Shown here: positions 1,584 to 17,391 of the stretch, piece by piece
How positions within the stretch are numbered: position 1 is the stretch's first letter
Layout: each line of letters begins with the position of its first letter
DNA from: a virus
Lineage: Duplodnaviria > Heunggongvirae > Uroviricota > Caudoviricetes
Virus record (IMG/VR): IMGVR_UViG_2695420589_000003
Length of the DNA stretch: 19,056 bases
Reading direction: 5' to 3' (one strand)
Translations under genes and position numbers: made by a program
The notes under the pieces: generated by a model
Told to the model about the DNA's origin: nothing
The model's input: the letters and a program-made list of their open reading frames with translations, nothing else
Database searches by the model: none

Positions 1584-2187
1584 TGCGGGCCTCCTGTCGA
1601 ATCGCTGCCACCTTTAACGCCACCGTGCTTATGCGTATGCACTGTGATGCCGTTTGAGGTGAAATCGCCGCCGCTGTGCGTGATATTGCCGCTCATCGTT
1701 CCCCCTTTTGTGACGTCAAGCGTCGCTGTTCTCAGAAGGTCTGTGCATTCCACGACAGGCGTGTTCAGTGTCACGCTGATGGATGCCTGCAAAGTGGCCG
1801 TTTTCATGCCGCTTGCGCTCAGTGCGCCTGCGTCCGCGTCGTAGCGGAACACCGCGCCGTCCGGCGCGCTGACCACGATTTCTTTCAGGCTTTTGCCGGG
1901 TGCCGGAATGGCATCACTCCACAGGCTGCCGATTATCATGGCGGTTTCCGGGTTGCCGCCGATGCAGGCAATTGCCACCTGTTCGCCTGGTGATGGCGGA
2001 AACCACACGTTGNNNNNNNNNNNNNNNNNNNNNNNNNNNNNNNNNNNNNNNGCGTGGTGTTCCAGCGCAGCCAGCCTGTTTCCAGTTCGCCGCTGCGAAC
2101 GCGCACGCACCAGGATTCCTCATCAACTTCAGAGATGATCCCGGTGCGGATGATATTGCTCAGCAGTCGCATGAGTTCTGCGCTCAT
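1580..2187 (-). CDS. V: Baseplate spike/hub protein gpV; interrupted by masked run 2013-2051
   Basis: N-terminal part (MSAELMRLLSNIIRTGIISEVD..., ATG 2187, GGAGG RBS 7 nt upstream) and C-terminal part (...ITVHTHKHGGVKGGSDSTGGPQ) both resemble recalled P2 gpV; the two visible halves are in different frames across the mask. Confidence 0.8.
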
Positions 2188-2779
2188 CGTACAGCCTCCG
2201 CAATCCGGNNNNNNNNNNNNNNNNNNNNNNNNNNNNNNNNNNNNNNNNNNNNNNNNNNNNNNNNNNNNNNNNNNNNNNNNNNNNNNNNNNNNNNNNNNNN
2301 NNNNNNNNNNNNNNNNNNNNNNNNNNNNNNNNNNNNNNNNNNNNNNNNNNNNNNNNNNNNNNNNNNNNNNNNNNNNNNNNNNNNNNNNNNNNNNNNNNNN
2401 NNNNNNNNNNNNNNNNNNNNNNNNNNNNNNNNNNNNNNNNNNNNNNNNNNNNNNNNNNNNNNNNNNNNNNNNNNNNNNNNNNNNNNNNNNNNNNNNNNNN
2501 NNNNNNNNNNNNNNNNNNNNNNNNNNNNNNNNNNNNNNNNNNNNNNNNNNNNNNNNNNNNNNNNNNNNNNNNNNNNNNNNNNNNNNNNNNNNNNNNNNNN
2601 NNNNNNNNNNNNNNNNNNNNNNNNNNNNNNNNNNNNNNNNNNNNNNNNNNNNNNNNNNNNNNNNNNNNNNNNNNNNNNNNNNNNNNNNNNNNNNNNNNNN
2701 NNNNNNNNNNNNNNNNNNNNNNNNNNNNNNNNNNNNNNNNNNNNNNNNNNNNNNNNNNNNNNNNNNNNNNNNNNNNNNN

Positions 2780-2850
2780 CGCGCCTGCTGGGCGCGGCGT
2801 AAATCCTGTGCCAGCTTTCTGGCGATGTTATTAATGGCCTGCTGATTCAG
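2780..2850 (-). CDS. Short visible fragment of a tail gene between masked runs (possibly gpS)
   Basis: Minus-strand frame is open across the 71 visible nt (LNQQAINNIARKLAQDLRRAQQA); P2 places S between R and V. Position only, no motif. Confidence 0.25.
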
Positions 2851-3285
2851 NNNNNNNNNNNNNNNNNNNNNNNNNNNNNNNNNNNNNNNNNNNNNNNNNN
2901 NNNNNNNNNNNNNNNNNNNNNNNNNNNNNNNNNNNNNNNNNNNNNNNNNNNNNNNNNNNNNNNNNNNNNNNNNNNNNNNNNNNNNNNNNNNNNNNNNNNN
3001 NNNNNNNNNNNNNNNNNNNNNNNNNNNNNNNNNNNNNNNNNNNNNNNNNNNNNNNNNNNNNNNNNNNNNNNNNNNNNNNNNNNNNNNNNNNNNNNNNNNN
3101 NNNNNNNNNNNNNNNNNNNNNNNNNNNNNNNNNNNNNNNNNNNNNNNNNNNNNNNNNNNNNNNNNNNNNNNNNNNNNNNNNNNNNNNNNNNNNNNNNNNN
3201 NNNNNNNNNNNNNNNNNNNNNNNNNNNNNNNNNNNNNNNNNNNNNNNNNNNNNNNNNNNNNNNNNNNNNNNNNNNNNNNNNNNNN

Positions 3286-3465
3286 CAGCTCTCCGGCGTA
3301 ATCCATGACAAACATCACTATCTGATAGCGGTAAACAAACGATGGGGTTTCTCCGGTCGTTTCAATGTTGCCGCTCTCCACGAAAATGGTGAATTTTTCC
3401 GGGTTGGCATGACACCACCGGCATGAACGGGTCATGGCTTCACGCAGGGAATCAGTTTTCAGCAT
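3286..3465 (-). CDS. R: Tail completion protein gpR, N-terminal 60 codons visible; 3' end masked
   Basis: ATG at 3465; MLKTDSLREAMTRS... resembles recalled P2 gpR N-terminus; follows the lysis genes as in P2. Confidence 0.65.
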
Positions 3466-3742
3466 GGTTGTTGTCCTCGTTGTTCAGTCGTTGCAGCCTG
3501 CGCTGTTCCAGTAATTCAATGGCCCGCTTATCGGCGTTACAGGTTTCCAGTGCGTCCATGAGGCTGTCGCTCCATATCCCGATGTTTCCCCATGATGGCG
3601 TCACCGGAAACGGCGGGGGAAGTACGGGGGCGGTCAGCCCTTCCGGGATGAAACGGAACGACGGCGGCGGCGCGGACGCGTTCTGCGTGCTGGTGCAACC
3701 GCTCAGTAAAGCGAGCGTCAGGAACAGCGCGGGCACATGCAT
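3452..3742 (-). CDS. lysC: Outer-membrane spanin (o-spanin, LysC/Rz1-like lipoprotein)
   Basis: Track ORF 3452..3772; lipobox LLSGC after a hydrophobic stretch and a Pro-rich mature region (PPPSFRFIPEGLTAPVLPPPFP); starts inside lysB in another frame and runs past its stop. Start is either GTG 3772 or ATG 3742. Confidence 0.7.
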   Translation of the reverse strand: MHVPALFLTLALLSGCTSTQNASAPPPSFRFIPEGLTAPVLPPPFPVTPSWGNIGIWSDSLMDALETCNADKRAIELLEQRRLQRLNNEDNNHAEN

Positions 3743-4010
3743 CTGTCGTGATATCGTTGCGTAGCTGTTCACGTCGGATTTCCCCTTCCTGTTGTCGGTT
3801 CTGGCGCGCTGTCATGACGTCACGCAGTACACCGGATGCGGTGCTGATGATGGTGCCGGCCTCTTTCAGGGTCCGGCTGTAATCGTCCAGTTGCGCCTGT
3901 GTATAACGGTTGTGTCCGTCTTCCTGCCCCAGTCTGAATGTCTGCCAGAGTGTTATGGTCAGCAGCGTGAGGACGGTCAGTGCCATCATCAGGATGTAAC
4001 GCACTTTCAT
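3537..4010 (-). CDS. lysB: Inner-membrane spanin (i-spanin, LysB/Rz-like)
   Basis: 157-aa ORF with one N-terminal TM segment (ILMMALTVLTLLTITLW) and a charged periplasmic part; ATG 4010 overlaps the endolysin stop as ATGA. Confidence 0.7.
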   Translation of the reverse strand: MKVRYILMMALTVLTLLTITLWQTFRLGQEDGHNRYTQAQLDDYSRTLKEAGTIISTASGVLRDVMTARQNRQQEGEIRREQLRNDITTDACARAVPDARFTERLHQHAERVRAAAVVPFHPGRADRPRTSPAVSGDAIMGKHRDMERQPHGRTGNL

Positions 4011-4544
4011 GACTGGCCTCCGGTGTCACGTAAGCACCATGCACGAAAATCAGTACGACGGTTAACCAGTCCCTGTGAGCGTTCGCCGCCGCTGTTCACG
4101 AAGTCAGTCAGTCTGTTGCACATGTCAGGCCAGTTGTGCGCCTGTGCATGTTTCCAGATAGTGGTGCGGTGGTAGTTACGGTTCTTATCCCTGAACCACA
4201 TAAGATTTCTGCATCCAAGATTAAAGGCGGCATCTGTCATTGCCTCAAACGCGGACTGTGGCATGGCGTTGCCGCTGAAGTTCTGATTTATGCAGTTTTC
4301 TGCATGTTGCATATCATTAACCCAGCGCCCGGCGACTTCCGTTTCGGTGTACAGACGATTTTCCACATGCCCGGTCGAGCCGCACCCCACGGTCATTACC
4401 CCGGCAATATCCCGGTAAGGCGTTGCGCGACAGTCCTCCCATGTGGCAATGCGGATTTGCGCTTCCGGGCTGGTCCGGAGTTTGTGAGGGGCAATGGAGA
4501 ACCCCAGCGCCACAATGGCGGCTACGGCGTAACGTTTAACGGGC
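4007..4544 (-). CDS. K: SAR-type endolysin (GH24 phage lysozyme, P1 Lyz / phage 21 R-like); start hidden in mask 4545-4562
   Basis: Visible sequence has a weakly hydrophobic Ala/Gly-rich N-terminal segment (YAVAAIVALGFSIA), an E-x8-D-x5-T catalytic arrangement (WEDCRATPYRDIAGVMT) and blocks ENCINQNFSGNAMPQSAFEAMTDAAFNLGC and FVNSGGERSQGLVNRR that match recalled P1 Lyz. Confidence 0.85.
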
Positions 4545-4562
4545 NNNNNNNNNNNNNNNNNN

Positions 4563-4855
4563 GCTTTATCATGTGTATCGTTATCCCGCAGAATGTTCAG
4601 AGCCTGACGCTCACTGTCGTGAAGTGGCCGTGCGTCTGACTGCGCCAGGATACTGGCGATGAGTTCATTGCGACGCTGCATGGCGGTTTCCATCAGGCGG
4701 CGATGTCGCCAGGCATGTAATGCAGACAGAGAACCGAGTAACAACCCGGCAAGGGCGATTTTTTCACTGATGGTCATCACGCCTATTGTGGTGGCTGTGA
4801 CTGATGCCCAGAAGGTGATCCAGTCACTCACCCGCTGAAAAAAACCTGTTACCAT
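4563..4855 (-). CDS. Y: Holin with two predicted TM segments; stop hidden in mask
   Basis: ATG at 4855 sits 2 nt after the X stop; two hydrophobic segments (WITFWASVTATTIGVMTI; IALAGLLLGSLSALHAW) then a charged tail; directly precedes the endolysin. Confidence 0.65.
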
Positions 4856-5046
4856 AGCTGTATCATCTCTCGTTGTTTTTTCTTCTCCGGCTCCGGCATT
4901 TCCACCTCCTGTCCGGCTTCCAGAAATACCTGTCGGCAGAGTCCGGGGTTGGCATCCAGCACCTTTTCGGTGACGCCCTGCGTCGTGCCGTAGTACCGGA
5001 AACAGAGCGAATCCACGGTGTCGCCTTCCAGTGTCTTCACTTTCAT
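4849..5046 (-). CDS. X: Tail protein gpX
   Basis: 65-aa ORF from internal ATG 5046 (MKVKTLEGDTVDSLCFRYYG...LDANPGL), resembling recalled P2 gpX (67 aa); ATG overlaps the L stop as TGATG. Confidence 0.8.
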   Translation of the reverse strand: MKVKTLEGDTVDSLCFRYYGTTQGVTEKVLDANPGLCRQVFLEAGQEVEMPEPEKKKQREMIQLW

Positions 5047-5312
5047 CAGCACAACTCCGCAAAGATTCGCGGGCGGCACAGAATGTCAGAGATGGCCCAG
5101 CTCACATCGCGCCACAAATCCGATGTCTGTATATCCAGTGCGTCCGCCCGGCGGTCGCCCTTGTCCGTTGTGTCCGCATCGCGGTAACGCTCCAGAATCA
5201 GGGCGCGTGTGGCGGTATAAACAGCATTGCGCCAGTGCCAGAGATTGACGCTTTCTCCGTTAATTACAGGTGCCGGAACATCGGCCAGCGTCTGATGGCC
5301 AGCCGCCTGCTG
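5046..5312 (-). CDS. L: Head completion protein gpL, C-terminal part; 5' part masked
   Basis: Open minus-strand frame ending at stop 5046-5048, located between M and X as in P2. No motif verified. Confidence 0.55.
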   Translation of the reverse strand, partial: QQAAGHQTLADVPAPVINGESVNLWHWRNAVYTATRALILERYRDADTTDKGDRRADALDIQTSDLWRDVSWAISDILCRPRIFAELC

Positions 5313-5811
5313 NNNNNNNNNNNNNNNNNNNNNNNNNNNNNNNNNNNNNNNNNNNNNNNNNNNNNNNNNNNNNNNNNNNNNNNNNNNNNNNNNNNNNNNN
5401 NNNNNNNNNNNNNNNNNNNNNNNNNNNNNNNNNNNNNNNNNNNNNNNNNNNNNNNNNNNNNNNNNNNNNNNNNNNNNNNNNNNNNNNNNNNNNNNNNNNN
5501 NNNNNNNNNNNNNNNNNNNNNNNNNNNNNNNNNNNNNNNNNNNNNNNNNNNNNNNNNNNNNNNNNNNNNNNNNNNNNNNNNNNNNNNNNNNNNNNNNNNN
5601 NNNNNNNNNNNNNNNNNNNNNNNNNNNNNNNNNNNNNNNNNNNNNNNNNNNNNNNNNNNNNNNNNNNNNNNNNNNNNNNNNNNNNNNNNNNNNNNNNNNN
5701 NNNNNNNNNNNNNNNNNNNNNNNNNNNNNNNNNNNNNNNNNNNNNNNNNNNNNNNNNNNNNNNNNNNNNNNNNNNNNGCGTCTTCTGGTGCGGCTGCGGA
5801 ATCGGCTTTTT

Positions 5812-6504
5812 TCAGGGCGCGGGAAAGGGNNNNNNNNNNNNNNNNNNNNNNNNNNNNGTTGCAATCTCGCGTTTCACACCTGCGTTCTGGTTCAGATGCA
5901 TCGCTTCGCGCAGCAGCTTCAGTGATGAGGCCATGCTGTCCGCATCGCTCAGGCCACGGCGGGCAAAGGCGCACGCCTTGCATAATTTGGCGCGCACTTC
6001 GTCCGGCATATCCTGGTTGGCGACAATTTCCCAAAGTGTGTCCAGTGGTTCGATAAAGACGGACAAATCCGCGTCGGCATCCGTCCCGGCCTGCGTCAGT
6101 ACCGGATTGCAGATTTCTTCGGTCAGCACTGTGGCAGCAGTACGGCCAAAGTTATCCGGCATGATGAGGTTGTGACGGACCGCATACGCACCAATACGCA
6201 GCGCAAGCGGAAGATCGCCGCAGTCAATCGCCCACACCATCAGCGTGGCAATCACTTCGTCCTGTTGCCCGCCGTCAGCCTCCAGCGTTCCCTCAATCCA
6301 GCCGGAAAAGTCCGGCAACAACGCTTTTTTGATGTCGGCTTTCGCGCTTCTGGCCTGTACGCCCTTAAGCCGGGCCTGTGCCAGACGCAGACGATACAGC
6401 ACCTCTTCATGCGCGGTACGCGCGGCGTGGTCCACACCTTCATTCGCCCGGCCTGCGCGCTGTGCCATCACGTTCTGCCAGTGTTGCTGTGCAGGAGTAA
6501 TCAT
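5812..6504 (-). CDS. M: Terminase small (endonuclease) subunit gpM; 3' end uncertain because it crosses mask 5830-5857
   Basis: ATG 6504 with GGAGAG RBS; the block MPDEVRAKL and overall profile resemble recalled P2 gpM; synteny N-M-L. Confidence 0.8.
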   Translation of the reverse strand: MITPAQQHWQNVMAQRAGRANEGVDHAARTAHEEVLYRLRLAQARLKGVQARSAKADIKKALLPDFSGWIEGTLEADGGQQDEVIATLMVWAIDCGDLPLALRIGAYAVRHNLIMPDNFGRTAATVLTEEICNPVLTQAGTDADADLSVFIEPLDTLWEIVANQDMPDEVRAKLCKACAFARRGLSDADSMASSLKLLREAMHLNQNAGVKREIAXXXXXXXXXXPFPAP

Positions 6505-6521
6505 TTTTTCTCTCCGTTACA

Positions 6522-6540
6522 GGCGGGCATGATGCCCGCC
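6522..6540 (-). promoter_or_regulatory. GC-rich inverted repeat (GGCGGGCAT-G-ATGCCCGCC) in the N-M intergenic spacer
   Basis: Read directly; lies between the N stop (6550) and the M RBS/start (6504); not followed by a U-tract on the coding strand. Confidence 0.4.
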
Positions 6541-6549
6541 GTGAGTTGA

Positions 6550-7602
6550 TTAGCTGTCGGCGAACTTCAGGCCAGTGACCATCGCGCACTTGCCATAGTC
6601 TTCAACGACATAAGCGTCATTGATGGACTGGTAGGTGGCGATGCGGTTGTATTCCGGTTCGTCTTTCATCAGACGACGCATTGAACCTTTCTGCCAGTAA
6701 ATCGACAGGTTGTTGAATGAGGTGATCAGCATCGTTGCATCCGGGAAGAACGGTGCAAGGAACACACCCAGCCCGCCAATGGTGCGCGATGACAGGATGA
6801 GCTGCCCGGCAAGTAATTCCGCATTGGGATTCTGGCCGCTGATGCTGTTCAGCACTGGCAGACGCAGCGAGTTAAACAGGTTGCGCCCCATAATCACCAC
6901 GAGGTCGTCAGCTTCCTTGTGCCATTCATCCAGCAGAGATGAGCGCGCGTCCTGTACCAGTGCATCAGGGTTCGCGTATTTACCCGCGTGCGCCACGGTG
7001 TTGTCCATGTTGCGGGAAGTCAGCGTCACGTCATTCATTACGCGCTCGCTGGCATTGGTTCTGATGTGCTCCAGCCACCCCACGTTAACGTCCTGAAGCA
7101 GCTTGTTGGTGCTGAAGTTGGACTCATCCGCGTGAGATGTGCCGTTGAAACCGATCATGATGCGGTCAAGTGCCACCTGTCGGGCAATCTGTGCGCTGAT
7201 GCGGGACTGAAAATCGCTGTGTGCCGACCAGGCATCAAGCTGCGGATACGAAATAAACGTGTCGTAGTTCACCTGTTCGCACTGGTATTTGCGGTTTTTC
7301 AGATCAACCACGTTATTCGGGTTACGGCGTTTTGTTCCGTCATAACTGGTATTTGTGCGTGCAATCGGTCCTGTGGTGTCCAGGAGGATTTTTTCGCCTT
7401 TCTGGTCGGTCACGCCGATCACGTTAATTTTTTTTGTAAGTTCGGTGCTATCCTTTGAGGCGTTTTCAAAACGTTGCTGCACCGCAGGTTCCACGGTAAA
7501 TCGCGATACCAGTGCAGAAACCGGGATATTGTTAAGCGACGCCTGCTGCGCCATATAGCAACCCAGCTTGTTGCGGGTAATATCTGACATCACCAGATTC
7601 AT
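6550..7602 (-). CDS. N: Major capsid protein gpN
   Basis: 350-aa ORF (P2 gpN 357 aa) with recalled similarity (FTVEPAVQQ..., GKYANPDALVQDA..., LSIYWQKGSMRR...); AGGAG 10 nt upstream of ATG 7602 (alternative ATG at 7590). Confidence 0.9.
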   Translation of the reverse strand: MNLVMSDITRNKLGCYMAQQASLNNIPVSALVSRFTVEPAVQQRFENASKDSTELTKKINVIGVTDQKGEKILLDTTGPIARTNTSYDGTKRRNPNNVVDLKNRKYQCEQVNYDTFISYPQLDAWSAHSDFQSRISAQIARQVALDRIMIGFNGTSHADESNFSTNKLLQDVNVGWLEHIRTNASERVMNDVTLTSRNMDNTVAHAGKYANPDALVQDARSSLLDEWHKEADDLVVIMGRNLFNSLRLPVLNSISGQNPNAELLAGQLILSSRTIGGLGVFLAPFFPDATMLITSFNNLSIYWQKGSMRRLMKDEPEYNRIATYQSINDAYVVEDYGKCAMVTGLKFADS

Positions 7603-7625
7603 AAAAAATTTGCTCCTTTGTCTTA

Positions 7626-8462
7626 TCAGAAGTCAGCCAGCTGGTCGGAGGCTGCGCCCGTTGCGGTGAACCGGTTCTGCGGATCGCCGTCCTGCGTGCG
7701 CAGTTTTTCCTTCAGTGCTGTCAGCTCCGTGGTCAGTAAAGTGATTTTCTGGCTGTCCTGCTGATGGCGTGTTTCCAGCGCATTAAAACGGTCGATAATG
7801 TCGGCCTGTGACGTTGCGACGCTTTCCACCGCTTCCTGAATACGGGAGAAACTGGCGTCATCCGCTTTGCGGCCACGACCAATAATCCCCATTACGCGGT
7901 TAAACCACTGGGTGCCTTCTTCCTGGCGTTGTTCTGCCATTTCGATGATTTCAGACTCGATGGCTTCGGAGATAAGCGGTGCTTCACCCTGGATACTGTT
8001 GAACGTCATCACCGCCTGACGTTGCTGTGCCGTGAATTTCAGGCGCTCAGTGCCCAGGCTTGCCGGGGTGTCGGTCATCGCCAGCCCGACCAGATAGGCG
8101 CGCCCGTTAACGGAGAACTGCGGGTGCAGTTCGATACTGGAATAGATTTTCTTGCCGTCCGCGACAAGCTGCTTCATGCGCTCGGTCGGTTCGATTTCTG
8201 CATACAGCGCAGTACGTCCGGCCAGCGGACCTTCCGTAATGTCTTCCGTACTCAGTGCGGTGACATCGCCCATTGCGGAAAATTCGCTTGACGGGCATGG
8301 CGAGAGATAGTGCTCAACGTTCACGCGGGCAGCGTAAACATCCGGGTTGAAGTTCTCGGCGGCTTCACGCAGATGCACCGGACTGATTTCACGGCCATCA
8401 ACAGTTGATCCGGAGACAGCCACGCGAAACTTTTTGCGGGATGTCTTTTTTTCATTAGCCAT
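7626..8462 (-). CDS. O: Capsid scaffolding protein gpO
   Basis: Internal ATG 8462 (MANEKKTSRKKFRV...) with GAGGGG RBS; 278 aa versus P2 gpO 284 aa; block YLVGLAMTDTPASLGTE matches recalled gpO; divergent from P as in P2. Confidence 0.85.
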   Translation of the reverse strand: MANEKKTSRKKFRVAVSGSTVDGREISPVHLREAAENFNPDVYAARVNVEHYLSPCPSSEFSAMGDVTALSTEDITEGPLAGRTALYAEIEPTERMKQLVADGKKIYSSIELHPQFSVNGRAYLVGLAMTDTPASLGTERLKFTAQQRQAVMTFNSIQGEAPLISEAIESEIIEMAEQRQEEGTQWFNRVMGIIGRGRKADDASFSRIQEAVESVATSQADIIDRFNALETRHQQDSQKITLLTTELTALKEKLRTQDGDPQNRFTATGAASDQLADF

Positions 8463-8858
8463 AGTTTTTGCCCCTCTGACTGGTTCTTCAGTCATGATGG
8501 CAAAGCGTAACAGGCTGATACAAAGGGCTTTTGTTGTAAGAAAACGGCCAGAACAGGGGGNNNNNNNNNNNNNNNNNNNNNNNNNNNNNNNNNNNNNNNN
8601 NNNNNNNNNNNNNNNNNNNNNNNNNNNNNNNNNNNNNNNNNNNNNNNNNNNNNNNNNNNNNNNNNNNNNNNNNNNNNNNNNNNNNNNNNNNNNNNNNNNN
8701 NNNNNNNNNNNNNNNNNNNNNNNNNNNNNNNNNNNNNNNNNNNNNNNNNNNNNNNNNNNNNNNNNNNNNNNNNNNNNNNNNNNNNNNNNNNNNNNNNNNN
8801 NNNNNNNNNNNNNNNNNNNNNNNNNNNNNNNNNNNNNNNNNNNNNNNNNNNNNNNNNN

Positions 8859-10399
8859 CAGGTGGTGACTTTAAGGAAATAGACCTGCTGACCCGGCAGC
8901 TTAAAAAACTGCATGATGGCCAGCCGGATGCGACGGCCACAGGAAAGAAAGGCCGGGCGAAAAAACTCAAAAATCATTTCACGCCGGAACAGATTGCCGC
9001 ACTGCGGGAAAAAATCATCAGCAGGCTGGAGTGGCATCAGCGGGGCTGGTTTGACTCCCTGACGCTTTGCAGGGAAGCCGGGATACGTAACAGGATGATC
9101 CTGAAATCCCGACAGATTGGGGCGACCTGGTATTTTGCACAGGAAGCACTGCTGATGGCGCTGCGTGACGATGTGGCACAACCTTACCAGCGTAACCAGA
9201 TTTTTTTGTCTGCGTCGCGTCGTCAGGCGTTCCAGTTTAAAAGCATTATTCAGAAGGCCGCGGCTGAAGTCGATGTGGAGCTGAAAGGGGGCGATAAAAT
9301 CATCCTCTCCAACGGCGCAGAGATGCATTTTCTCGGCACTTCTGCTGCGACGGCGCAATCTTACACGGGCAATTTTTATTTTGATGAATTTTTCTGGGTC
9401 AGTCGCTTTGCTGAACTGCGCAAGGTGGCTGGCGCTATGGCAACCCTCAGCGGACTGCGGCGCACCTGCTTCTCCACGCCATCCACCGAAACGCACGAGG
9501 CATACGCCTACTGGAACGGCGACCGCTGGAACGAGAAAAAGGCCGCGCATAAACGCCAGCGTTTTTCTGTGGACTGGAAAACGCTGCATAACGGGCTTAT
9601 CTGCCCTGACCGGACGTGGCGGCAAATTGTCACGCTGGAAGATGTGGTTAATCACGGCTGGAAACACACCGATATTGATGAAATTCGTGATGAAAACACC
9701 GAAGACGAGTTCCGCAATCTCTATATGTGTGAGTTTGTCCGCGAAGGGGAATCGGCATTTAACCTGAATATCCTGATTGGCTGCGGTGTTGACGGATACG
9801 ACGACTGGAAAGACTGGAAACCCTTTGCCCCCCGCCCGATGGGGAATCGTCCGGTATGGATTGGGTATGACGCAAACGGCAGCAGTGGTAACGGCGACAG
9901 CGGCGCTGTGTCCGTGGTGGTTCCTCCGGCTGTTCCTGGTGGTCGTTTCAGAACGGTGGAGACGCGACGCGTTCAGGGGCTGGAATTTGAAGAGCAGGCC
10001 AGAGTTATTGAAGAGTTCACGTATCGCTACAACGTGGAACACATCGGCATTGATGCGACGGGCGGGCACGGGGATGCCGTCTATCAGATAGTGAAACGGT
10101 TTTTTCCCGCCGCCATCCCTTACACCTTCACGCTGTCATCAAAACGGTCGCTGGTACTGAAAATGCTGCAAATAATGCGTGCCGGGCGGTGGGAATACGA
10201 TCGCGCCGAACGCGAGCTGGTTGCGGCCTTTAACGCCGTGCGTAAGGTGAAAACACCGGGCGGTTTTATCACTTACGAAACGGACCGCGCGAGGGGGATC
10301 AGCCACGGCGACCTTGCGTGGGCAACCATGCTTGCTGTCATTAACGAACCGATTGGCGGCGAAGGAGAAAACGAGCGTTTCACGGTTATGGAGTTCTGA
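8859..10399 (+). CDS. P: Terminase large (ATPase) subunit gpP; N-terminal part masked (8561-8858)
   Basis: Long plus-strand frame ending at TGA 10397-10399 that overlaps the Q start (TGATG); Walker-B-like FYFDEFFW present; position divergent from O and upstream of Q matches P2. Confidence 0.85.
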
Positions 10400-11445
10400 T
10401 GAGCAGAAAAAATAAAAAAGTGCGCATGAGTTCACGCATTGATCTCGCTGATGCGCTCAGGAAAGAATCGTCGCTCAGTGCATTCACATTTGATGGTCCT
10501 TACCGCCTGACCGGGCATGACCTGCTGGACAATATGTACTGTGCTGATAACGGGCGGTGGTATGAAACCCCGGTGGACTGGTACGGTCTGGCAAGAGCTG
10601 CCCGGCAAACGTCCTGGCATCAGTCTGCGCTTTACTTTAAGCGCAATGTATTGCTCGGCTGCTATATTCCGCACCCGCTGCTTTCCCGGCAGGATTTCTC
10701 GGCGCTGGCGCTGGACTGGTTTGTGTTCGGTAACGCATTCCTTGAGCTTCGGAGCAATATGCTCGGCGAACCGCTTAAATTACGGCACGCCCTGGCGAAA
10801 TACATGCGACGCGGAAGCGATCTTGAATCATGGTGGTATGTGCAGGATGGCAAGGATGCGTTTCAGTTTCGTCCTGGCAAAGTGTGCCACCTGATGAATC
10901 CGGATATTAACCAGGAAATCTACGGCATGCCGGAATATCTTGGCGCATTACTCTCGGCCAGCCTTTCTCATTCGGCGGACATGTTCAGAAAACTGTACTA
11001 CGACAACGGATCCCACGCCGGGTGCATCATCTACATCGGTGCAGCGCAGGTAAACCGCGAAAGCATGGACTCCCTGAAAGAAACGCTACAGGGGGCACGT
11101 GGTGGTGGTGCGTTTAAAAACGTGCTCATTCATGCGCCCAACGGGGGCAAAGAGGGGGTGCAAATTTTGCCGTTCCAGCAGATCACCGCAAAGGATGAGT
11201 TCATGAATGTTAAGGCGGCATCCCGTGATGATGTGCTGGCTGCGCACCGCGTTCCGCCGCAACTGATGGGGGCGATGCCGGGCGAAAAAAGTGCGTTTGG
11301 TGATGTGGAGAAGGCCGCGCGGGTTTACGCAATTAACGAGCTGATGCCCGTCATGGAGGCCATGAAGCACATCAATGACTGGCTTGGCGAAGAGGTGATC
11401 CGCTTTAACCCTTACGCACTGTTAGACACCCAGCCCACATCCTGA
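10399..11445 (+). CDS. Q: Portal protein gpQ
   Basis: 348-aa ORF (P2 gpQ about 344 aa) starting MSRKNKKVRMSSR; GGAG RBS; last late gene before the presumed cos region, as in P2. Confidence 0.9.
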   Translation: MSRKNKKVRMSSRIDLADALRKESSLSAFTFDGPYRLTGHDLLDNMYCADNGRWYETPVDWYGLARAARQTSWHQSALYFKRNVLLGCYIPHPLLSRQDFSALALDWFVFGNAFLELRSNMLGEPLKLRHALAKYMRRGSDLESWWYVQDGKDAFQFRPGKVCHLMNPDINQEIYGMPEYLGALLSASLSHSADMFRKLYYDNGSHAGCIIYIGAAQVNRESMDSLKETLQGARGGGAFKNVLIHAPNGGKEGVQILPFQQITAKDEFMNVKAASRDDVLAAHRVPPQLMGAMPGEKSAFGDVEKAARVYAINELMPVMEAMKHINDWLGEEVIRFNPYALLDTQPTS

Positions 11446-11471
11446 CGCGCTTCGCTTGTCTGCTGCTTCGC

Positions 11472-11496
11472 CGGGGCATAAAAAATTTATGCCCCG
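11472..11496 (+). terminator. Perfect 11-bp stem / 3-nt loop hairpin (CGGGGCATAAA-AAA-TTTATGCCCCG) 27 nt after the Q stop
   Basis: Read directly; no U-tract follows on either strand, so not a canonical intrinsic terminator. Confidence 0.35.
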
Positions 11497-11782
11497 ACTC
11501 TCCAGCTCCTGTATCAGTCAGATAATTTCACGACGCTTTCCTGCTGATTGCCATCATCGACAGTCAGACTCTTACGCAATCCCACCTCGTTGACTGCATA
11601 TTCTCGCCGTCTCAGTGCGATTTTGACGGCCTTACCTTTCACCCCATCAAATCAAAAGCCCTCACGTCTTTTTCACGCTCAGCGTGAGAAATACAGCCAT
11701 TCTGTTGTATCTCTGCGACATCGTTCAGGGAATGCTATTTACCCCCTGAAACGCGGGCTGTTCCCCCGTCACCTGCGCGCAG

Positions 11783-11826
11783 AAAAAACGCGTTTTTTTG
11801 TGCATGCACGGATCCTTGACGGATCC
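11783..11826. repeat. Cluster of palindromes: AAAAAACGCGTTTTTT (11783-11798), GTGCATGCAC (11800-11809), GGATCC-N5-GGATCC (11810-11826)
   Basis: Read directly from the sequence. Confidence 0.6.
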
Positions 11827-11870
11827 AGCCGCCACGCGGGCCGGAAGGGCAAAAAGTCGTTCAAAAAAAT

Positions 11871-11896
11871 TGTGCAAATTTGTGCACTATTGTGCA
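11871..11896. repeat. Three TGTGCA hexamers at exactly 10-bp spacing (11871, 11881, 11891); a fourth copy at 11799
   Basis: Read directly; helical phasing suggests a protein-binding array. Confidence 0.6.
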
Positions 11897-11936
11897 TTTA
11901 TAAAATCAACTAAAAAACACCTAGTGTGACTTACCT

Positions 11937-12122
11937 CTACCACTCGATCGGCACGTAGTCATTAAGTTCCGGAGACCAATTGCACTTTTCACATCTGTGT
12001 TTTCCATTCTGGCAGATACATAAACGATAACGGCCACAATGCGGGCACCCATTTTCACCATTATCATAATCACCGAGCGACCATTCCTGCATAAGCAGCT
12101 CTTCTTCATCATCATTTAGCAT
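11937..12122 (-). CDS. Small Cys-rich (zinc-ribbon-like) protein with an acidic N-terminus; island gene 5
   Basis: 61-aa ORF with ATG 12122, AGGGGGA RBS and a Cys cluster (C-x2-C-x5-C-x-C-x6-C-x2-C); last gene of the minus-strand island. Confidence 0.55.
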   Translation of the reverse strand: MLNDDEEELLMQEWSLGDYDNGENGCPHCGRYRLCICQNGKHRCEKCNWSPELNDYVPIEW

Positions 12123-12136
12123 TAATCCCCCTTGAG

Positions 12137-12376
12137 CTATTTACTCTTCTCGGCCCTCAAAATCATACGAGAACCATCATCCAGCTCCCAATTAATTTCA
12201 CCGCCTTCTGCCATGACTAGATGCCAAACGAGTTGAGCGGCCTCGTTGGTTACATCGCGACCGCGATCATTTCCTACGCGGCGTTTTGTTCCGTCTCCTA
12301 AGTCACGCATTTTTGCCAATACGATGGTTTTTGATAGCGGTGAAAAACCAAGCTGTAGTCGTGCTGAATTACTCAC
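12137..12376 (-). CDS. Hypothetical protein (79 aa from GTG, or 57 aa from the internal ATG); island gene 4
   Basis: ORF whose GTG start overlaps the stop of the upstream 174-aa ORF (GTGA); no recognisable motif. Confidence 0.4.
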   Translation of the reverse strand: MSNSARLQLGFSPLSKTIVLAKMRDLGDGTKRRVGNDRGRDVTNEAAQLVWHLVMAEGGEINWELDDGSRMILRAEKSK

Positions 12377-12897
12377 TGGCTGCCCCCTTTGTACTGTGTT
12401 AACTCTTCCTGCTCCTGCATCATGCGATTGACCTGAACGCGTGTGCGTCGAACGGCAAAATTAAATTGAAACATGAGCCGGAACATTTCTGATGCTTCCG
12501 TGTGAGCATCACGGATAGGTGACAGGCGGTACAGTTCTGCCTCCGTAGCTTGTTGAATCAATGACAGATCAAATTGAAGTGCGGGTCTGGTACATTTTGC
12601 ACATCTGGCAGCAAGCTCCGGTATTAGTCTCTTAACGAAGGTGTTTTGCACCGCTTTGTTGATTTGTGTCTGCATCCAAATCGCAAATTTCAGCGAACGC
12701 ATAAGTTTGATAGCCTCGGGCAGCGGCAGATAGATCATGCTGGTAGATTTGGGTGGTTGGTGAACCATCTTCACGGATACGCGATTTCGCAGCGTTCGGA
12801 AAATCGTGTTCCCAACAACAGCTTCTACGGATACAGGACAGGGAGCCAGACCAGCCCGCAGTGCTTCTTTCATTAGCATGTATTCGTATTTTTTCAT
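12373..12897 (-). CDS. Hypothetical basic protein (174 aa); island gene 3
   Basis: ATG 12897 with GAGGA RBS 6 nt upstream; no recognisable domain. Confidence 0.55.
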   Translation of the reverse strand: MKKYEYMLMKEALRAGLAPCPVSVEAVVGNTIFRTLRNRVSVKMVHQPPKSTSMIYLPLPEAIKLMRSLKFAIWMQTQINKAVQNTFVKRLIPELAARCAKCTRPALQFDLSLIQQATEAELYRLSPIRDAHTEASEMFRLMFQFNFAVRRTRVQVNRMMQEQEELTQYKGGSQ

Positions 12898-13121: not shown

Positions 13122-13387
13122 NNNNNNNNNNNNNNNNNNNNNNNNNNNNNNNNNNNNNNNNNNNNNNNNNNNNNNNNNNNNNNNNNNNNNNNNNNNNNNN
13201 NNNNNNNNNNNNNNNNNNNNNNNNNNNNNNNNNNNNNNNNNNNNNNNNNNNNNNNNNNNNNNNNNNNNNNNNNNNNNNNNNNNNNNNNNNNNNNNNNNNN
13301 NNNNNNNNNNNNNNNNNNNNNNNNNNNNNNNNNNNNNNNNNNNNNNNNNNNNNNNNNNNNNNNNNNNNNNNNNNNNNNNNNNNNNNN

Positions 13388-16785: not shown

Positions 16786-17391
16786 NNNNNNNNNNNNNNN
16801 NNNNNNNNNNNNNNNNNNNNNNNNNNNNNNNNNNNNNNNNNNNNNNNNNNNNNNNNNNNNNNNNNNNNNNNNNNNNNNNNNNNNNNNNNNNNNNNNNNNN
16901 NNNNNNNNNNNNNNNNNNNNNNNNNNNNNNNNNNNNNNNNNNNNNNNNNNNNNNNNNNNNNNNNNNNNNNNNNNNNNNNNNNNNNNNNNNNNNNNNNNNN
17001 NNNNNNNNNNNNNNNNNNNNNNNNNNNNNNNNNNNNNNNNNNNNNNNNNNNNNNNNNNNNNNNNNNNNNNNNNNNNNNNNNNNNNNNNNNNNNNNNNNNN
17101 NNNNNNNNNNNNNNNNNNNNNNNNNNNNNNNNNNNNNNNNNNNNNNNNNNNNNNNNNNNNNNNNNNNNNNNNNNNNNNNNNNNNNNNNNNNNNNNNNNNN
17201 NNNNNNNNNNNNNNNNNNNNNNNNNNNNNNNNNNNNNNNNNNNNNNNNNNNNNNNNNNNNNNNNNNNNNNNNNNNNNNNNNNNNNNNNNNNNNNNNNNNN
17301 NNNNNNNNNNNNCGGGGATCCCCGTTCCTTCACGCCCCACTGCGTGGCGCGGTTGTTGCCAGTCCCTGATGTACTCTGCCGTCATAGTGAT

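Follow-up and report, generated by a model that had tools for sequence, protein, structure and literature searches.

The cos (DNA-packaging) site of P2-family phages is an already known kind of site, and 19-nt 5′ cohesive ends have been mapped for P2, 186, and P4. In the present comparison, cos regions are oriented from the portal gene to the island, and offsets are anchored on the CCCCG inside the mapped 19-nt cohesive end of these three, whose records carry the annotated ends. In P2, 186, and P4, the site lies 3′ of the portal gene and beside an exchangeable hotspot; its C-rich core is flanked by GCGNGC-type motifs, a T-run and a TGCA stand at +37, three more TGCA boxes follow at +109, +119, and +129-132, the whole signal is shared with satellites, and gpM and gpP or their homologs are present. 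The locus described here has all of these properties. A 55-bp core of the P2/P4 cos has been described (Ziermann and Calendar, 1990, as quoted in PMC5694545 and PMC2231350), and because the core, as quoted there, leaves out the distal boxes, these may be accessory and not essential. Ungapped identity between P2 and P4, which have only cos in common, extends from −14 to +40, a span equal to the published core, and returns at +108..+113 and +117..+124, i.e., at the distal boxes. The window, by which we denote the whole stretch of 19,056 nt that was analysed (IMG/VR record IMGVR_UViG_2695420589_000003), has the layout of the P2/P4 core, namely the core itself, a 19-nt slot, a T-run, and a TGCA at +37. 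Several differences were found. The P2 core GTGCTTTCCCCGCCTCGCC and the window core GTTCCCCCGTCACC are divergent (13/19 at best), the latter apparently being 2-3 nt shorter; a GC hairpin stands beside the P2 cohesive end, whereas the window has an A6CGCGT7 stretch instead; the spacer of the window contains an extra conserved element, GGGCCGGAAGGGCAAAAAG, unlike that of P2, 186, and P4; and the cohesive ends are mapped in those three, whereas the ends of the window are predicted.

Another described system is cosB of phage lambda, which spans ~120 bp and comprises the small-terminase sites R3, R2, and R1, with the IHF site I1 between R3 and R2 (PMC4669245). The window and lambda cosB both have a multipartite short-repeat array of ~120 bp to one side of the nick, with a proximal repeat, a bendable spacer, and distal repeats. 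By contrast, R2 is inverted in lambda whereas the boxes of the window are all direct repeats, A-tracts take the place of the IHF site in the window, the gpNu1-type small terminase of lambda and the PF05944 protein of the window belong to unrelated Pfam families, and the P2 array occupies the end remote from the head genes, while lambda cosB adjoins Nu1. IHF had been proposed as one possible binder of the present site when only its sequence was read, and this proposal is not borne out, as there is no consensus at a conserved position. The IHF consensus WATCAANNNNTTR has no match in the window segment at ≤2 mismatches, and among 46 non-redundant cos segments, obtained from 80 IMG/VR loci (portal profile, 56-100% identity) and reference phages, no match at ≤1 mismatch recurs at any spacer offset; the only recurrent match (4/46, minus strand, +19) precedes the proximal box.

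Furthermore, 'sticky ends' ggcgaggcgggggaacgag have been reported for the Salmonella phages SEN4 and SEN5 (PMC5261728), an assignment that appears to rest on similarity to P2. These ends map to the anchored offsets −7..+11, as does the core of the window, and the SEN4/SEN5 core CGTTCCCCCG is intermediate between those of P2 and the window. TTTTTTGTGCA is found at +37 and boxes are found at +109 and +119, as in the window, although SEN4 and SEN5 keep the P2-type right half CCTCGCC, unlike the window, and are without its GGGCCGGAAGGG element. In the literature searched, we found no footprinting or binding data on how the P2-type terminase reads its site and no papers on P2-type cosB or Xuanwuvirus termini, and the papers on P88 and Citrobacter phiSM yielded no cos information. 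Here, positions 11783-11896 of the window are interpreted, at a probability of roughly 0.7, as the recognition arm of cos in a P88-like prophage of the P2 family. The base-exact geometry of the boxes across the family and its satellites is new here, and it adds modestly to a known type of site.

Genomic setting of the site

Megablast identifies the window as a P88-like prophage of Escherichia coli, of the genus Xuanwuvirus and the family Peduoviridae (P2 family), the shared parts being 94-96% identical to those of P88, Citrobacter phiSM, P88_4B11, and others. The gene order is that of the P2 head module, read backwards. The small terminase subunit, a gpM homolog with 35% identity to P2 gpM, is encoded at 5812-6504 on the minus strand (Pfam PF05944, Phage_term_smal, E = 1e-36) and is the presumed reader of the TGCA boxes. 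It is separated by the capsid and scaffold genes from the large terminase subunit, a gpP homolog at 8859-10399 on the plus strand, which has Terminase_6N and Terminase_6C domains, is colinear with P88 TerL, and is the presumed nicking enzyme. The portal protein, a gpQ homolog with 45-47% identity to the portals of P2 and 186, follows at 10399-11445 on the plus strand. A non-coding stretch of 450 bp, which contains 11783-11896, is located 3′ of the portal gene, and past it lie minus-strand genes for small ORFs, a DUF7446 protein, ParM, and the replication protein gpA. The site as a whole (11737-11896) is situated between the portal gene and a variable island, which is the slot of cos in P2. The earlier assignment of the segment to a presumed P2-family cos region is supported by this position, by the gpM and gpP homologs, and by the box offsets described below.

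Masked N runs are present in the window at 2013-2051, 2209-2779, 2851-3285, 4545-4562, 5313-5777, 5830-5857, 8561-8858, 13122-13387, and 16786-17312, and they distort ORF calls, for example that of a 407-aa 'ParM' ORF. The run at 8561-8858 hides the N-terminal part of the large terminase; a truncated or pseudogenized terL was rejected on this ground, the apparent shortening being the masked run. Directly 3′ of the portal stop, a GC-rich hairpin, GCCGGGGCATAAAAAATTTATGCCCCGAC (11471-11497), is found at the position that matches the annotated tQ terminator of P2, although a simple terminator scan does not list it. Between this hairpin and cos, the conserved non-coding stretch carries a 15-bp palindrome, TCACGCTCAGCGTGA (11673-11687), which is also found in relatives; TTTTTTCAGCGTCTCAGCGCG, which resembles it loosely, lies on that side of cos in P2 too, but at another distance.

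TGCA boxes, spacers, and satellites

The segment 11783-11896 contains a perfect 16-bp palindrome, AAAAAACGCGTTTTTT (11783-11798), a perfect 10-bp palindrome, GTGCATGCAC (11800-11809), a GGATCC pair 5 nt apart (11810-11815 and 11821-11826), a GC-rich block (11827-11850), and three TGTGCA hexamers at an exact spacing of 10 bp (11871, 11881, and 11891), so that every element listed in the sequence-only reading is indeed present in its place. A fourth copy, TTGTGCA at 11798-11804, had been overlooked. It lies in a proximal TGCA box on the plus strand (11798-11809, with TGCA at 11801, offset +37), and the three others constitute a distal array of TTGTGCA boxes on the same strand (11870-11896, with TGCA at 11873, 11883, and 11893, offsets +109, +119, and +129). 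TTGTGCA occurs four times on both strands of the 19-kb window, all within the 99 bp of 11798-11896, and the chance expectation of a triple at 10-bp spacing is 0.04 even with three mismatches tolerated. The distance from the last box to the nearest stop of an island ORF, at 11921, is 25 bp and not about 40 bp as had been given.

The boxes hold their offsets across the family. TGCA is found at +37, +109, +119, and +131 in P2, at +37, +43, +109, +119, +128, and +132 in 186, at +37, +43, +83, +109, +119, and +132 in P4, and at +37, +41, +109, +119, and +129 in the window. P88, phiT5282H (Novemvirus), and an E. coli satellite have +37, +109, +119, and +129, whereas 3LV2017 (Reginaelenavirus) has +46, +109, +119, and +129 and ST16-OXA48phi5.4 (Reipivirus) has +37, +57, +108, and +118; the sequence between the boxes is unrelated among these groups of phages and satellites. 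In the 46 non-redundant segments, TGCA stands at exactly +37, +109, +119, and +129 in 39, 34, 26, and 21 cases, respectively, against a background of 0.9 per offset, and extra copies are found one base off these main offsets. A proximal TGCA at +37 or +36 is present in 42 of the 46 as well as in P2, 186, and P4. The distance between the proximal and the distal boxes is 72 bp in 33/39, the first and second distal boxes are 10 bp apart in 32/32, and the second and third in 20/23. Distal TGCA boxes at about +109/+119/+130, a feature derived in this analysis and not from the literature, are thus a trait of P2-family cos that the window has. On account of these shared offsets in P2, 186, P4, the satellites, and the 46 relatives, the boxes are regarded as family-wide cos elements, and the array as a conserved packaging element. 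The repeats are accordingly present in related phages, and the phased array, for which a protein-binding role had been suggested, is real, conserved, and probably bound by protein. The boxes are most likely binding sites of gpM, the small terminase. The P88-like clade has boxes of the form G-TGCA, whereas P2, 186, and P4 have A-TGCA, a split which, together with the 35% identity of the two gpM proteins, is compatible with gpM as the putative reader.

The remaining motifs are conserved to a different extent. Of 23 distinct P88-like sequences, 100% have the three GTGCA spaced by 10 bp, 96% have GGATCC-N5-GGATCC, and 48% have the exact A6CGCGT6, whereas GTGCATGCAC is present in 17% and most have the non-palindromic GTGCACGCAC. 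A palindrome cluster acting as a functional unit, as had been suggested, is not supported by this pattern; most close relatives have imperfect versions of the A/T palindrome and of GTGCATGCAC, and GGATCC-N5-GGATCC is confined to the genus and missing from satellites that share the site. These three motifs are lineage-specific filler of the scaffold. The A6-CGCG-T7 stretch (11782-11799) fills the 19-nt slot that holds the GC hairpin in P2, 186, and P4, and across genera only the T-run adjoining the proximal box is kept. Likewise, the spacer formed by the GGATCC pair and the left part of the GC block (11810-11835) is conserved in length; outside the genus its sequence is unconserved, and satellites and other genera have unrelated sequence of the same length. 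Two A-tracts, A5 (11851-11855) and A7 (11863-11869), lie ~12 bp apart on the plus strand directly upstream of the distal boxes (11851-11869); their consensus in the non-redundant relatives is GnAAAAAnnnnnTCAAAAAAATTGTGCA, the same element occurs in the 3LV2017 class, and it is possibly an intrinsic bend. Folding of the region is no better than that of shuffled sequences (z = −1.3). A Dam-regulated pac site of the P1 type was also considered and rejected, since GATC in clustered repeats is not conserved: the site has two GATC, both within the GGATCC pair, and GATC at +47 is found in only 11/46 non-redundant relatives and is absent from satellites, P2, 186, and P4.

One weaker E. coli match is a small integrated element that is not a prophage and carries a P88-type cos, found in ~57 complete genomes. 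Its genes encode a MazEF toxin-antitoxin pair, a 423-aa 'P2 family major capsid protein', an Ogr/Delta zinc-finger protein, an integrase, a toprim primase, and an Icd-like protein, and it is inserted next to hpt/can or elsewhere; in E. coli OkiPb01677, for example, it occupies locus positions 2156-9572. The element looks like a P4-like satellite which encodes its own capsid-protein homolog. It is identical to the phage at −27..+17, +30..+47, and +74..+132, whereas +18..+29 and +48..+73 are swapped for unrelated sequence of the same length, the latter replacement covering the GGATCC pair and most of the GC block, and the third box is likewise where its homology to other copies stops. This pattern indicates that elements which depend on the helper terminase for packaging retain core and boxes, whereas the palindromes on which attention had first been focused are lost.

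The data accord with a multipartite recognition signal for the terminase, and the likeliest model is the following. The functional elements would be the proximal box (11798-11804), the three distal boxes (11870-11896), and the A-tracts before the latter, all four boxes standing at fixed distances from the conserved C-rich core at 11753-11781 and the proximal box 25 bp from the nick region. A gpM oligomer would bind the boxes on one face of the helix, and the 72-bp spacer, fixed in length and free in sequence, would be bent or wrapped; such bending may position gpP for the staggered nicks that would produce 5′ cohesive ends.

Position of the cut

The most conserved block of the cos region, at 11737-11781 on the plus strand, contains the probable homolog of the P2/186/P4 cohesive end, GCGGGCT^GTTCCCCCGTCACC^TGCGCGC. 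This probable colinear homolog is placed at 11753-11781, directly left of 11783-11896. The block is invariant across the 23 P88-like sequences, and −27..+17 is identical between P88-like phages and satellites. By homology, the cut is predicted at 11755-11773, give or take 3 nt, a placement to which we give slightly better than even odds. This position lies between two nick contexts that resemble those of P2 and are inverted relative to each other, GCGGGCT^ (plus strand) and GCGCGCA^ (minus strand). The best match of the intergenic region to the P2 19-mer GGCGAGGCGGGGAAAGCAC coincides with it (13/19, 11755-11773, minus strand), although the same score is reached by chance elsewhere, and similarity to the 19-mer was rejected as a sole locator of the cut since 13/19 arises by chance in the window. 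The homology of the core is instead argued from its colinearity with the boxes and from the intermediates SEN5 and 3LV2017, which bridge this core to that of P2, their right half being identical to P2 at 12/12 positions. The GC block, whose likeness to the P2/186 cohesive end the sequence-only reading had pointed out, matches that end at chance level (10-11/19, with 13/19 attained several times elsewhere in the window).

Another placement, to which we assign somewhat less than an even chance, puts the P88-like cut inside 11783-11896, at about 11843-11861 (GCGGGCC^GGAAGGGCAAAAAGTCGTT^C), i.e., at the right edge of the GC block and A5. The cut site would then be shifted by ~86 bp relative to P2, into the spacer, with a layout resembling cosQ-cosN-cosB in which the proximal box and the old core would face the portal gene, and the three distal boxes would lie 12 bp away towards the island. 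This placement derives from the only P88-like record with ends in the region, NC_049391/LR595891 (P88_4B11), which is opened seamlessly at 11851|11852 and which gives candidate cohesive ends GCGGGCC^GGAAGGGCA|AAAAGTCGTT^C (11836-11862, plus strand). Contig ends in the project of P88_4B11 seem physical, because two P2-type records open inside true cos: LR595869 (P2_2H4, same project) is opened at 9|10 in the true P2 cohesive end with Nextera remnants at both ends, and NC_049389 (same project) starts at base 1 of the cohesive end with adapter junk inside. The P88_4B11 break lies 9 nt 3′ of GCGGGCY^GG (cf. the P2 nick context GCGGGCG^GG), which is the 9|10 geometry of LR595869, and phages and satellites share the conserved element from +74 onward. 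However, it resembles known cohesive ends no better than chance (10-11/19), a P2-like nick context is present on one strand only, and 6/19 positions are polymorphic among near-identical P88-like phages, compared with none in the homologous core. Moreover, its left half is missing from the related 3LV2017/SEN5 class, which keeps all box offsets, and some other explanation would be needed for core and boxes being colinear to the base with P2, 186, and P4. The linearisation of P88_4B11 is undocumented, and an annotator could have opened the record by the same loose resemblance; scans of IMG/VR for the Nextera adapter found no adapter-flanked P88-like ends at either position. Unless it forms cohesive ends, 11836-11862 would otherwise be a conserved accessory or bend element. 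With the cut at either position, in the homologous core or in the spacer, 11783-11896 lies in cos.

Sequence databases were also inspected for physical termini. No pile-up of IMG/VR locus ends was seen, and circular copies labelled as plasmids have arbitrary starts. Metagenome contig starts at −11, −2, +18, +19, and +100 were rejected as evidence for a cut, being suspected assembly artefacts; the start at −2 is attributed to a branch point of the k=55 assembly graph at a strain variant, and the same is suspected for the others. Nextera transposase adapter remnants (AGATGTGTATAAGAGACAG / CTGTCTCTTA) occupy bases 1-30 and the last 10 bases of LR595869.1 and bases 11-16 of NC_049389.1, at or inside the cos cohesive end. 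In an unrelated P2-like contig, IMGVR_UViG_2558860220_000001, an adapter remnant is found within 12869-12891 directly after GCGGGCCG / ...GCATTAAAACAAAAAACCCCGGCGCGGGCCG, where the P2-type nick context stands, so that such remnants may also flag cos ends in other assemblies.

The island edge and alternative functions

A stretch of 171 bp around the site is present in 1150 of 5426 complete E. coli genomes (about a fifth), and most of these ~1150 matches end at query base 157, which is position 11896, the last base of the third box. Among the 23 distinct P88-like sequences, conservation is continuous over ~11719-11896 and nil at 11897, the junction with the variable island, where homology among P88-like phages and satellites stops; beyond +132, the sequence differs even among near-identical phages. 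The site therefore abuts the start of the exchangeable island, with the third box as the outer limit of the packaging signal and the island beginning at the next base. A cos-adjacent hotspot of P2-like phages has been published, and its position (PMC9122126) matches that of the island here. The island beside cos (11921-12897, minus strand) comprises a 64-aa ORF, the DUF7446 protein (79 aa), and a 174-aa ORF; none of them gave a match in Pfam or PADLOC, and the content differs from that of P88 at the same position. In PhiR44_2, vB_EcoM-569R5, 705R2, and further loci, an insertion of ~600 bp, annotated in one record as 'putative exported protein', separates the portal gene from the cos core, and a second, smaller variable spot is therefore placed on the portal side of cos.

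In a transcriptional interpretation, the TGTGCA array would be the operator of an island regulator or a terminator that keeps island transcription out of cos. Boxes 2 and 1 with the A7 run do form a weak terminator pattern on the minus strand, with a 5-bp stem (GTGCA/TGCAC) followed by AATTTTTTTG, and this is the strand of the island genes ending at 11921; in P2, the third box is just upstream of the old-tin transcript starts. The array is nevertheless constant between otherwise identical phages whose adjoining island differs in content, P4 and another satellite family retain it at unchanged offsets next to unrelated neighbours, the stem measures no more than 5 bp, and the boxes of P2, 186, and P4 are without a T-run. 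These considerations make an operator or terminator improbable. Transcription would explain neither the 10-bp phasing nor the constant 72 bp that separate the array from the proximal box, and the one promoter-like site in 11400-12200 (12191-12162, minus strand) scores at the level of shuffled sequence and lies outside the array, in which there is none. The earlier suggestion of a site for a regulator of the adjacent island is likewise unlikely, given the variable island and constant array and island genes that are transcribed towards the array. As for motif density being a functionless product of chance or composition of the intergenic region, the variability of the short palindromes (GGATCC, GTGCATGCAC) among relatives and the non-significant fold would accord with this very improbable view, but chance is excluded by the anchored statistics, with all four TTGTGCA of the window clustered at the site, a phased triple far above expectation, and box positions base-exact across phages of 45-100% portal identity and satellites despite replaced spacers.

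The preferred reading of 11783-11896 is that of a cos recognition arm. A joint proposal, which we consider tentative and on the whole unlikely, goes further: the boxes and the 72-bp spacer would constitute a cosB-like signal of Peduoviridae and their satellites beyond the 55-bp core, the edge of which would set the start of the island to the base, while the P88-like nick would be shifted by ~86 bp and the old core otherwise used.

The bases of the packaging signal define what a satellite or an engineered cosmid needs for mobilisation by P88-like helpers. Furthermore, the precise edge of the signal explains the one-base start of the variable, often defence-carrying island beside P2-like cos, and the combination of fixed boxes with freely replaceable spacers provides a testable model of how the P2-type terminase reads its site.
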